25,018 nt of DNA, from contig JBHLRP010000025.1 in assembly GCA_048882485.1 (NCBI GenBank), positions 19,195-44,212 of the forward strand. The letters are read 5' to 3'. The position numbers were made by a program, and so were the translations under genes. The notes under the pieces were generated by a model that was given only the letters and a program-made list of their open reading frames with translations, was not told the origin of the DNA and ran no database searches. Below, piece by piece: positions 17,509-19,804 of the stretch (position 1 is the stretch's first letter; each line of letters opens with the position of its first letter). The DNA is from Candidatus Thorarchaeota archaeon. Lineage in GTDB: Archaea; Asgardarchaeota; Thorarchaeia; Thorarchaeales; Thorarchaeaceae.

Positions 17509-18141
17509 TCACACTATCCCAGGGCCCTTATCGGAATCTGGTTTCCTGCCAATCTCAGACATATGTGAATCGATACGTTCTGCAATTGATTTACTCTTCT
17601 CCATCAGAACATCACGCACCGACCAACCAATAACATCCTGTTGTTGGGCGATTTTGAATAGTGCAAACCAAATCTGCCCATCAGCATATGCTCCAGCCTG
17701 ATATAGCTCTTCCACCATCTGCCTTACAATACTAATCTTGTCAACTGAGTCATCAATTTTCTTCAGAATGACCTTTTCCTTCTTCAGAACCTCTCTGACG
17801 CGCATAATCATTTGAACCGAGCTGAGAGCTGACAACACAACAACAAAGAGTGTAATGGCCAACAGATCAAAGACCAATTCAACGCCTCCTCTCGGGTAGA
17901 GAATTGCTACTATTGATCCAACTAGGATTATCTCAAAGACGATTCCCTCAATGACGATGTTTAGAAGGTTCTTGATTCTCCACGCATAGTATCTGGCGAG
18001 AGAAGATTTCGGTTTTCGGAAGTTCATGACAGAGTTTAGATATGCATTCCTTCCACCTCTCACAAGATAGATGAGAATTCCCTGCAAGAATAGAGCGTCT
18101 ATCACAATGGTGAAGGAATAGAGGTTGACAAGTGTCTGCAT
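17509..18141 (-). CDS. Hypothetical membrane protein (3 TM plus cytoplasmic helical tail)
   Basis: 210-aa ORF; TTTTAAAC at 18171-18164 lies about 23 nt upstream of the ATG, suggesting a leaderless mRNA. Confidence 0.75.
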   Translation of the reverse strand: MQTLVNLYSFTIVIDALFLQGILIYLVRGGRNAYLNSVMNFRKPKSSLARYYAWRIKNLLNIVIEGIVFEIILVGSIVAILYPRGGVELVFDLLAITLFVVVLSALSSVQMIMRVREVLKKEKVILKKIDDSVDKISIVRQMVEELYQAGAYADGQIWFALFKIAQQQDVIGWSVRDVLMEKSKSIAERIDSHMSEIGRKPDSDKGPGIV

Positions 18142-18179
18142 AGCTACACATATTCACTGCGTTGTTTAAAAGCTATTGA

Positions 18180-18800
18180 AGTGCGCCTGCCAAATTACTT
18201 TCGGTCCCCTCTCCAGACCCAACACGTATCCGGAAGCGCATATCTCTCTACAGAAAGGACTAATGCTGTCTAGCTCAGTATCAATCATACTCGATTCGTT
18301 TTGGGTATACGCGGGTCCGGGTGTGGCCCTCCCGGAATACAACCTGGGCTCGCGTCTTATTCTTCATCTTACGAATGACTTCTGACCTGTTGATTCAGTG
18401 TAAACCTCTGTGTTCCACCCTTCTCATGTCCAACGTCGCCGCTTTTTGGATTATTTTCTAATCCAAAACTAACACAAGCTTTGTCTACAATCATAGGACT
18501 AATAGCCCTCCTGCAATCCTGGCTTCCTTCTTCTGTTGAATATTGGCTGTATCATATCCATTTACAGAAAGTCTTTCCACAGTTCTTGCCACGGTGGGAT
18601 CATTATCACCCATCTCAGATTTGTCACCAAAGCTGAGAAGAACCATCTGGCTACGGTGAACAACCGCGGACTCTCCAAGATTCGATACGCAATCCTTTGT
18701 GGAGAGTAGGAGCTTCCGTTGAACGGTCTTGAACCGTCCTGAGGTTTTCGGTTGCGCGCCTTGTATCGGAGTACAGTCGCGCTTTCCTAGCTCCCTCATA
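18180..18800 (-). ncRNA. Candidate large structured non-coding RNA of unknown class
   Basis: At least nine stems or hairpins, mostly with G-U pairs and purine-rich loops favouring the minus strand; TTTAAG at 18829-18824 upstream; no convincing protein. Confidence 0.55.
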
Positions 18801-18871
18801 TCATCCTGTATTCAAAAGCCCGTCTTAAACTCCTATATCCAAATGACTTATCTCAGGTCCTAAGACTCTCG

Positions 18872-19804
18872 ATGTCTGTGCCCGACATGAGACCTGTACG
18901 TCACATAGACCCAGCAGATGACATAACTCTACGTAGCATTCTAGAATCCATGAGAGATGTGGGCGTCCTTGGAGCTGGGCGGCTTGGGAGAGCCGCATCA
19001 ATTGTTGCGCGCATGTTCAAAGAATCTGACTGTTTCAAGTTCCTATCACTCTCCGGCCCAATGGTCCCTGGTGGTCTAAGGGGAATAATCTGTCATCTAG
19101 TAGCGGGTGGATATATCAATGCCATCGTCACAAGCGGCGCAAACATCGTTCATGACCTCGTTGAGGCATATGGAGGCGCACATTACCGCGTTCCGCCTCA
19201 GAAGGATGACCATGAACTTAGAGAGGCAGGGATGGGCAGGATTGCAGATCTCTACGTAGAGGAGAAGGACTTTGAAGTCTTCGAGAAAGAAATCTACGAA
19301 TTCCTAGAAACACTTCCTGATGAGAAAATGACAGGTCTTGCTCCAAGTGAGTTCATGTCGGAATTGGGTGGCGCTCTGAAAGATGACGCATCGATAGTGC
19401 GACAGGCGGCCCTACACAATGTTCCTGTCTTTTCCCCTGGACTGATGGACTCGATGCTGGGGTTCCATATGTACACTTACAGTACCACGAAACCTTTTGC
19501 ACTTGACTTTGTGAAAGACTTGCGAATTCTGGGAGAGCTTGTGACCAACGCCAAAAAGACAGGCGCAATTATGCTGGGTGGCGGTCTTACAAAGCACTTT
19601 ACCATGGGCTCGACAATATTGCGGGGTGGCCTCGATATGGCTGTCCAAATCACGCTCGACCGTCCTGAAGGCGGCAGTCTTGGCGGTGCGCCTCTGGTCG
19701 AAGGGATTTCATGGCAGAAGGTTCAGACCGAAGCCCGATTTGAAACAGTCATTGGTGATGCAACAATCATCTTTCCAATCCTAATTCTAGGTGTACTCAG
19801 ATAA
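18872..19804 (+). CDS. dys: Deoxyhypusine synthase
   Basis: SGPMVPGGLR, TSGANIVHD, LGGGLTKH, GSLGGA, EGISWQK (catalytic Lys), GDATIIFP. Confidence 0.93.
   Translation: MSVPDMRPVRHIDPADDITLRSILESMRDVGVLGAGRLGRAASIVARMFKESDCFKFLSLSGPMVPGGLRGIICHLVAGGYINAIVTSGANIVHDLVEAYGGAHYRVPPQKDDHELREAGMGRIADLYVEEKDFEVFEKEIYEFLETLPDEKMTGLAPSEFMSELGGALKDDASIVRQAALHNVPVFSPGLMDSMLGFHMYTYSTTKPFALDFVKDLRILGELVTNAKKTGAIMLGGGLTKHFTMGSTILRGGLDMAVQITLDRPEGGSLGGAPLVEGISWQKVQTEARFETVIGDATIIFPILILGVLR

Follow-up and report, generated by a model that had tools for sequence, protein, structure and literature searches.

The present analysis shows that the interval between the divergent genes mem210 and dys (positions 18142-18871), in a 25,018-nt stretch of a Candidatus Thorarchaeota genome that is referred to here as the window, very probably consists of two unrelated elements, namely a TnpB mini-element with an omegaRNA (18382-18841) and the ancestral mem210/dys intergenic region (18142-18381). 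An earlier note on the same DNA had proposed a single, independently transcribed noncoding RNA of ~620 nt, encoded on the minus strand between 18180 and 18800 and not assignable to a known class. The interval cannot be regarded as one unit, because 18382-18841 is an insertion that is missing from the closest relatives. The central idea of that note, a large minus-strand RNA with many helices, is borne out by strong covariation among 16 copies; its size and class are not. The RNA would measure ~390-415 nt, from 18795 to 18408 or 18382, and 18180-18381 is unrelated ancestral spacer. The interval thus holds no new 620-nt RNA class, which removes a false lead, and it yields instead a model with 20 helices, supported by covariation, for an unusually large Asgard omegaRNA, the TnpB of which has a rearranged RuvC-II site.

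Composite Nature of the Interval

The gene mem210 (17509-18141, minus strand), an open reading frame (ORF) for a 210-aa membrane protein, lies upstream of the gene for ribosomal protein L35Ae, and dys (18872-19804, plus strand) encodes deoxyhypusine synthase (Pfam DS, E 1e-90). As had been noticed before, no other part of the window extends as far as the stretch between them (18142-18871) without an ORF of at least 90 aa, if one ORF of 102 aa is disregarded. Two of the checks proposed in the earlier note were run on the window or the interval itself. Rfam models give nothing in the window at gathering thresholds and nothing relevant at E<=10, and a scan for tRNA and tmRNA gives zero in the window. 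The folding z-score of the 621-nt interval is modest, being -2.9 for the minus strand and -2.0 for the plus strand (20 shuffles).

The 730 bp were also compared with 40 related genomes, followed by BLAST on the retrieved loci. In the following, G000 is the window genome, other G numbers are relatives, and C and L numbers stand for contigs and loci, respectively. The first 240 bp (18142-18381) are kept at the same locus in relatives (92% in G005 and 88% in G011), and in both of these genomes they join the last 30 bp before dys directly, with no insert, the empty site reading ...ACGAATGACTT|ATCTCAGG.... At this locus, the 460 bp from 18382 to 18841 are confined to G000 and to a single contig of G015 (C39), whose insert is fully colinear with that of the window and 83% identical to it.

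The TnpB-Derived Insertion

The insertion (18382-18841, minus strand), delimited by comparison with the empty site, is an internally deleted derivative of a TnpB insertion sequence (IS), that is, a "standalone omegaRNA" mini-element. Its middle part is ~70% identical to a dispersed multi-copy sequence in many genomes of the family; the same genome contains one further copy only, on contig C99. At the related loci this repeat forms the 3′ end of ORFs of 558-576 aa, which match Pfam PF07282 (Cas12f1-like TNB, formerly OrfB_Zn_ribbon; E 5e-13) as well as solved TnpB and Cas12f structures, the best chain being 9nzp_A (TnpB, E 6.6e-11).

Both ends of the element are present. At its 5′ end the insert reads TGGATATAGGAGTTTAAGACGGG (18841-18819, minus strand), a homologue of AACTTTATATAGGAGAAGACG, the promoter region just upstream of full-length tnpB (L153, L159, L059). 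This left-end stub (18818-18841, minus strand) carries two TATA-like boxes, GATATAGG at 18839-18832 and TTTAAG at 18829-18824, and we infer that it acts as a promoter; the TTTAAG element lies just upstream of the first helix, as previously stated. The opposite end comprises a 3′ tail and the right-end terminus (18382-18407, minus strand), as located by alignment of right ends. The insert there ends at 18382 with ...CAACAGGTCAG, which matches the conserved right-end terminus ...GAAACAGGTCAG, and the tail is ~14 nt shorter than that of most copies, which hold CAGTTGAG-GTTCACTCAC at this place. With both ends in place and homology to tnpB only at the C-terminal tail, the element is a tnpB IS from which ~1.3 kb of tnpB has been deleted, retaining the putative left-end promoter stub, the last ~102 tnpB codons, and the right end. 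The RNA accordingly sits within a lineage-specific mobile-element remnant and is not the independent RNA gene that had been envisaged.

The Thorarchaeota TnpBs that we inspected (L011:1595-3268(-), L009:1517-3202(-), and L057:8-1432(+)) read VAIGRLKNIR at the expected RuvC-II glutamate motif, the glutamate being replaced by glycine, and have intact RuvC-I (GIDLG) and RuvC-III (NADRNG) motifs. TnpBs of the "RuvC-II rearranged" type, with glycine for the glutamate, have been described as probably active, some of their branches being archaeal (PMC10691335), and the Thorarchaeota sequences with VAIGRL fit this type. The copy on contig C99 has an open TnpB frame, with its 5′ end cut by the contig edge.

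A classical IS200/IS605 element generates no target-site duplication and has subterminal hairpins and a Y1 TnpA. The insertion in the window is flanked by an 8-nt direct repeat, with the left copy AATGACTT at 18374-18381 and the right copy at 18842-18849, of which the empty sites contain one copy. The left ends of the copies hold an inverted copy of the right-end motif, and no tnpA was seen beside the copies whose surroundings were read. Judging from these sequences, the end architecture of the full-length elements differs from the classical one. In their left ends (L153 sense 640-750, L159 sense 600-710, L059:1917-2020) a segment of ~90 nt lies between two promoter copies AAC(C/T)TTATATAGG, and this segment contains TACGAGTTCAAAAC, the inverted right-end motif (GGAGTGAACTCAACTG versus CAGTTGAGGTTCACTC), plus a direct copy of the terminus GAAACAGGTCAG. 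Because the segment is bounded by repeats, the left-end boundaries are ambiguous, and no transposon-adjacent motif (TAM) could be derived from the flanks of the copies in G018 and elsewhere.

Structure of the omegaRNA

The structure was derived from an alignment of 16 full-length and truncated copies from 13 genomes, in tnpB-sense orientation and including the window copy. RNAalifold predicts a scaffold (18408-18795, minus strand) of 20 helices with 112 consensus pairs, of which 66 show compensatory double changes, the covariation term amounting to -13.1 kcal/mol. In total, 94% of the cells are paired, compared with 42-45% when the partners are slid by 1-3 columns, and the 66 pairs with double changes compare with 19-26 for the slid partners and 33 for shuffles; none of 500 shuffles attains any of the observed measures. 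Of the 112 pairs, 110 can form in the window copy. Its single-sequence fold (18405-18798, minus strand) gives z = -2.3, with 0 of 100 shuffles as good. Many G-U pairs are invariant or frequent, which assigns the RNA to the tnpB-sense strand, i.e., the minus strand of the window.

This structure can be set against the eleven helices of the earlier note. Six of these are exact, covarying helices of the consensus, namely 18789-18794/18709-18714, 18754-18782, 18721-18739, 18670-18707, 18613-18638, and 18444-18468. The hairpin at 18653-18667 is lost, its bases pairing long-range with 18589-18610 in the consensus, and the minus-strand helices placed in 18217-18336, outside the insertion, find no support in the orthologous spacers.

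The scaffold overlaps the last ~100 tnpB codons and extends ~85 nt past the stop, after which ~25-45 nt remain to the right end. In L009, L011, L153, and L159 the homologous sequence makes up the last ~305 nt of an intact tnpB together with ~110-135 nt downstream. The RNA is thus encoded in the tnpB sense orientation, begins within the 3′ part of the gene and reaches the right end of the element, its structure covaries, and its full-length homologues go with a TnpB. Since the class is defined by its position, strand, link to tnpB, and conserved structure, the predicted minus-strand RNA at 18795-18408 is a TnpB omegaRNA (reRNA), a known class, with a length of ~390 nt, or ~415 nt including the right-end tail to 18382. 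Its homologues lie at the 3′ ends of intact TnpB genes of 558-576 aa, so that the RNA is assignable after all. The C-terminal tail of TnpB, of ~100 aa and low complexity, is by the same prediction wholly overprinted on the omegaRNA. Archaeal RNase P RNA was also considered as an identity for the RNA and rejected; RF00373 has no match in the window, and the RNase P RNA of the genome is found on contig C110 (162.7 bits).

Standalone Copies and Selection on the RNA

Truncated copies of this kind are recurrent. G018 contains two full-length copies and five mini-elements (minis) of ~450 nt, which match the 3′ end of one full copy at 82-92% identity (four of the five at 91-92%). All five start at ...ATGAGAGGACTAGGCAAGTGG, which is both the start of helix 1 and the start of the homology in the window; a TATA-like CCTTATCAG stands before at least four of them, and a stop or frameshift interrupts two. 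A protein search with TnpB in five genomes gives ~24 near-full-length matches and ~15-20 matches over residues ~445-558 only, about half of the latter with in-frame stops. These recurrent minis indicate that putative promoter-plus-omegaRNA units arise and spread repeatedly in Thorarchaeota. It should be mentioned here that the G018 minis (L154-L158) and the window mini (18797-18799) share an ATG as the first retained codon, immediately before helix 1, in place of the GTG (Val) of full-length tnpB.

The 102-aa ORF (18491-18799, minus strand) lies over the omegaRNA and is a remnant of the C-terminal tail of TnpB (~residues 455-558), as seen from its motifs ...LGESAVVH...DNDPTVARTVERLSV..., which match ...LGESAAVHH...DNDPAV...ETLSV... 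of the full-length proteins. The deletion is the same in the copies of G000 and G015, and 65 substitutions separate them across 388 aligned scaffold sites. In the ORF, the ratio of nonsynonymous to synonymous substitution rates (dN/dS) is 0.81, the substitutions are distributed 21/17/17 over the codon positions, and the amino-acid identity is 65% at a nucleotide identity of 82%. Codon-level purifying selection on the ORF, which the earlier note had named as evidence that would count against an RNA, was not found, given this dN/dS and the broken ORFs of sister minis. The pairing behaves differently: G015 keeps 106 of the 112 pairs, compared with 90.4±2.9 (maximum 102 in 20,000 trials) when the same substitutions are placed at random. 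An earlier count over 83 pairs gave 12 one-sided pair-preserving, 3 double compensatory, and 3 breaking changes between the two genomes. The pairing is kept above random while the ORF drifts near-neutrally, which argues that, since the loss of the nuclease gene, selection has acted on the pairing of the predicted RNA and not on the peptide. The maintenance of guide-RNA minis by selection after nuclease loss is relevant to the question of how guide RNAs survive and disperse independently of their nucleases.

Proposed Working of the Mini-Element

We propose that one of the TATA-like boxes of the stub (GATATAGG or TTTAAG) starts a minus-strand transcript near 18800-18810, which would fold into the 20-helix scaffold and end in a guide copied from the right-end flank (AAGUCAUUCG...). 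The candidate guide-matched target beside the TAM would be AAGTCATTCGTAAGATGAAG. A TnpB encoded elsewhere, for which the open copy on C99 is a candidate, would be loaded with the RNA in trans and would cleave those alleles in which the site is vacant, and repair would then restore the element. Homing of IS605-family TnpB through guide-directed cutting has been described (bioRxiv 10.1101/2023.11.20.567912), and mobilised standalone omegaRNAs acting in trans with compatible effectors have also been reported (PMC10691335). In this scheme we infer transcription, guide position, trans-loading, and homing; the insertion, the homology to tnpB 3′ ends, the structure, and the selection on pairing are observed.

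The empty site sets the right-end boundary at 18382, and the 20-nt flank presumed to act as guide has only chance-level matches with 3 mismatches elsewhere in the genome. The insert is distributed in a patchy way, being present in G000 and on one of two contigs of G015, and absent from G005, G011, and the rest, which fits repeated use of the site or precise loss. In G013 (L026:1108-1410) an insert of 41 nt occupies exactly the same site and consists of a left-end fragment, ACGGAAGTACGAGTTCAAAA, joined to ...GAGAGGGTCAG from a right-end terminus. Apparently, AAGTCATT / AAGTATT is a recurrent target. The G015 contigs C39 and C14 (L002, L022) carry two versions of the L35Ae-mem210-dys locus in one metagenome-assembled genome, with and without the mini-element, which points to either a mixture of strains in the bin or coexisting occupied and empty alleles.

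Several points weigh against the interpretation of the insertion as a TnpB mini-element with an omegaRNA under selection. An 8-nt direct repeat on both sides of the insert is unexpected for classical IS200/IS605 transposition. The window copy is without ~14 nt (CAGTTGAG...) just before the GTTCACTCAC motif and could be defective at the guide-proximal end. The nearest full-length relative is only ~70-74% identical at the nucleotide level, which makes the compatibility of the C99 TnpB uncertain. The transcript, its ends, and its strand are predicted, and the selection test compares two sequences only, both of which are in the alignment from which the consensus structure was derived.

A single host-encoded ornate RNA of ~620 nt, representing a new class on the minus strand, would account for the many helices, the zero Rfam matches, and the negative folding z-score of the interval. 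It is hardly tenable when an insertion that the closest relatives lack accounts for 460 of the 620 nt, this part is homologous to tnpB 3′ ends, and the other 200 nt are without conserved minus-strand structure, their one conserved helix favouring the plus strand. If the 102-aa ORF is taken instead as a real small-protein gene, exapted from the C-terminal piece of TnpB, one can point to its being open in both G000 and G015, to the ATG start in place of the GTG of full-length genes, and to the TATA-like box upstream; the dN/dS of 0.81 with substitutions even over the codon positions, the stops or frameshifts in about half of the equivalent minis elsewhere, and a low-complexity, charged sequence with no Pfam domain make such a gene very improbable. 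A more serious possibility, still an improbable one in our view, is that the insertion is inert transposon debris, so that the RNA structure would be a fossil with no present function in 18382-18841. The deletion of tnpB, the loss of the ~14 nt near the right end, the single copy in the genome besides that on C99, and the absence of the element from the closest relatives would all be expected from debris. Debris would not be expected to keep 106 pairs through the 65 substitutions between G000 and G015, against 90±3 at random, while the ORF drifts, nor do the similar minis of G018, which are multi-copy and near-identical, suggest it.

Ancestral Spacer and Plus-Strand Hairpin

The order L35Ae - mem210 <-> dys is found in 43 of 43 loci inspected, in all genera sampled, and the spacer between the two divergent genes measures 247-270 nt in nearly all loci and 256-263 nt in most. 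In one locus (L006, G009:C23) dys matches from residue 100 only and the spacer is apparently rearranged, maybe by a deletion or an assembly problem. A comparison of the spacer in 30 genomes gives no ORF or upstream ORF that is common to them in frame or position. For the minus strand, RNAalifold on 25 orthologous spacers gives 6 pairs with zero covariation and -5.4 kcal/mol, which lends no support to the minus-strand helices drawn in 18217-18336.

On the plus strand RNAalifold predicts one hairpin (18309-18355), of 14 bp, with the arms 18309-18322 and 18342-18355 and a 19-nt loop that holds the near-invariant motif GCCCUCCCGGAA (18326-18337). The ACGCG/CGCGU pairing of the earlier note is real and belongs to this hairpin, i.e., to the opposite strand: 317 of 350 cells are canonical on the plus strand versus 255 of 350 on the minus strand, and the G-U pairs are valid on the plus strand only. 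The cells of the hairpin are paired in 92% of cases versus at most 48% with slid partners, and G-U, G-C, and A-U exchanges are present. In twelve more distant genera, 9 of the 14 pairs show compensatory changes, in an alignment fitted to the model. A covariance model (R1) has matches in 74 of 85 genomes of the family, with exactly one copy in most and a second match in three, and in none of 119 genomes of 24 other Asgard families. The hairpin lies between mem210 and dys in 43 of 43 loci inspected, always in dys sense and, in the ancestral arrangement, at a distance of 50-90 nt before the dys ATG. Conservation does not extend to the inner CCGGG/CCCGG hairpin. Additional plus-strand pairings, namely 5′ UUUCGG with the loop CCGGAA, AUUCGU/ACGAAU near the dys promoter, and CUUUCGG/CCGGAAG, were considered and rejected, being, on inspection of the alignments, restricted to a subclade or 4 bp long, with none predicted by RNAalifold. 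A CUUUCGG/CCGAAAG stem is likewise not kept throughout the family.

The hairpin is followed in all orthologues by a pyrimidine- and U-rich tract (18356-18369, plus strand), and this U/C-rich run is possibly an archaeal termination signal. A conserved TATA box, TTTAAAA (18165-18171), lies 27 nt from the start codon of mem210, which appears to be leaderless. On the far side of this box a conserved ATATTG is seen, likely a B recognition element (BRE). The palindromic box may serve both directions and drive a plus-strand transcript as well. Some 25 nt downstream of it stands the conserved block AATTACTTTCGG (18193-18204, plus strand), in which TACTTTC is almost invariant in the family and which is the predicted 5′ end of a plus-strand RNA. 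Further conserved blocks of the spacer are UACUUUCGG, ~25 nt past the TATA box on the plus strand, CUCYCC, and RAAA..CUGAAY. On the dys side, the ancestral spacer has the motif GAATGACTTATC at -31 to -20 of the dys ATG. Its G was lost to the insertion, and the flanking repeat rebuilds, on the dys side of the insertion, the near-invariant motif AATGACTTATCTC (18842-18854, plus strand; -30 to -18 of the dys ATG). The gene has no Shine-Dalgarno sequence, and GAATGACTTATC/AATGACTTATCTC are probably the BRE and TATA box of a leaderless dys.

The hairpin tolerates inserts on both sides. On its upstream side, G014 and G015:C14 have 74 additional nt, and on its downstream side the inserts measure 41 or 460 nt. 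The 74-nt insertion, GCTGACAGCCAAAGACGACTTAGGGC... (L014:1327-1665 in G014 and L022:1082-1417 in G015 C14), lies between a conserved GTTTTGG block and the hairpin, is absent from all other orthologous spacers, and possibly represents a small mobile element or an insert resembling an intron.

It may well be that the hairpin is the 3′ end of a separate small RNA of ~165 nt, started at the shared TATA box, and we favour such an RNA, with some reserve, over a dys leader because of the inserts tolerated on either side; the window fold of the ~165 nt gives z = -2.5. For 18190-18370 the competing explanation is a hairpin in a long regulatory 5′ leader of dys, responsive, e.g., to polyamines or aIF5A. 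The constant dys sense of the hairpin and its 50-90 nt distance from the dys ATG in the ancestral arrangement are what a leader would predict. We nevertheless consider it the less likely of the two, given the inserts of 460 bp (G000, G015) and 41 bp (G013) between hairpin and dys, the near-invariant BRE/TATA-like motif at -31 to -20 of a gene without a Shine-Dalgarno sequence, the lack of a conserved upstream ORF, and the U/C-rich tract directly after the hairpin.

Two further readings of the interval can be put forward, both of them possible though doubtful. According to the first, the spacer would encode a family-specific small RNA or a dys-linked regulatory RNA, with the 5′ block UACUUUCGG, the covarying 14-bp hairpin, and the C-rich loop GCCCUCCCGGAA, which resembles an anti-Shine-Dalgarno sequence, as its features; the hypusination enzyme, or other mRNAs, could then be expressed in dependence on an RNA signal. 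According to the second, an orphan omegaRNA would be selected at a fixed site and have a role beyond selfish homing, with, e.g., TnpB guided to this promoter region. The family-specific hairpin upstream of dys is a small, clean candidate for a new archaeal regulatory RNA.

Comparison with Known Systems

The RNA of the insertion resembles the TnpB omegaRNAs (reRNAs) of the IS200/IS605-IS1341 and OMEGA systems in sharing the sense strand of tnpB, in covering the last part of the gene and the DNA from there to the right end, and in its conserved structure. It differs from them in its large scaffold of ~390 nt and 20 helices with ~100 codons overlapped (the ISDra2 scaffold has ~130 nt), in the long partner TnpB (~560 aa) with glycine for the RuvC-II glutamate, and in the 8-nt direct repeat that flanks the element in the window. 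Nuclease-less copies in genomes that also hold full copies have been reported for OMEGA systems, and such RNAs are stated to work in trans (PMC10691335).

The haloarchaeal IS1341-type sense-overlapping transcripts (sotRNAs; Rfam RF02656/RF02657) are likewise archaeal and lie at tnpB 3′ ends; they were first named as such and are now regarded as omegaRNAs (PMC12558985). The RNA in the window belongs to a different sequence and structure family, the RF02656/RF02657 models having zero match in the window at E<=10. For certain groups of Asgard TnpBs, a conserved GTTCACTCA motif has been reported on the downstream side of the gene (Altae-Tran et al. 2023, PMC10691335), and the related copies of the present set are similar in holding CAGTTGAG-GTTCACTCAC ~20-25 nt past the last scaffold helix. 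In our set, in contrast to those groups, the sequence preceding the motif shows no hypervariability, and the window copy is without most of the motif. No Cas1-like gene was noted by the two copies whose upstream side was read, where ORFs were listed and no search was aimed at Cas1.

The likeness to OLE and ROOL suggested in the earlier note holds for the size, and these RNAs and GOLLD share with the present one the size class and the many helices. The resemblance goes no further, as the RNA in the window is transposon-derived and archaeal, overlaps coding sequence, and matches no Rfam model. The hairpin of the ancestral spacer (18309-18355), in turn, recalls the 3′ ends of small RNAs or leaders that consist of a hairpin and a U-tract, with its U/C-rich run and a TATA box ~140 nt upstream. 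It differs in the 19-nt loop with an invariant GCCCUCCCGG, conserved far beyond the needs of a terminator, and in its constant position at dys, and no described family matches it. The novelty of the present results is modest and consists of an unusually large omegaRNA for which a solid structure model is given, signs that an orphan copy has been under selection, and an undescribed, family-specific hairpin linked to dys.

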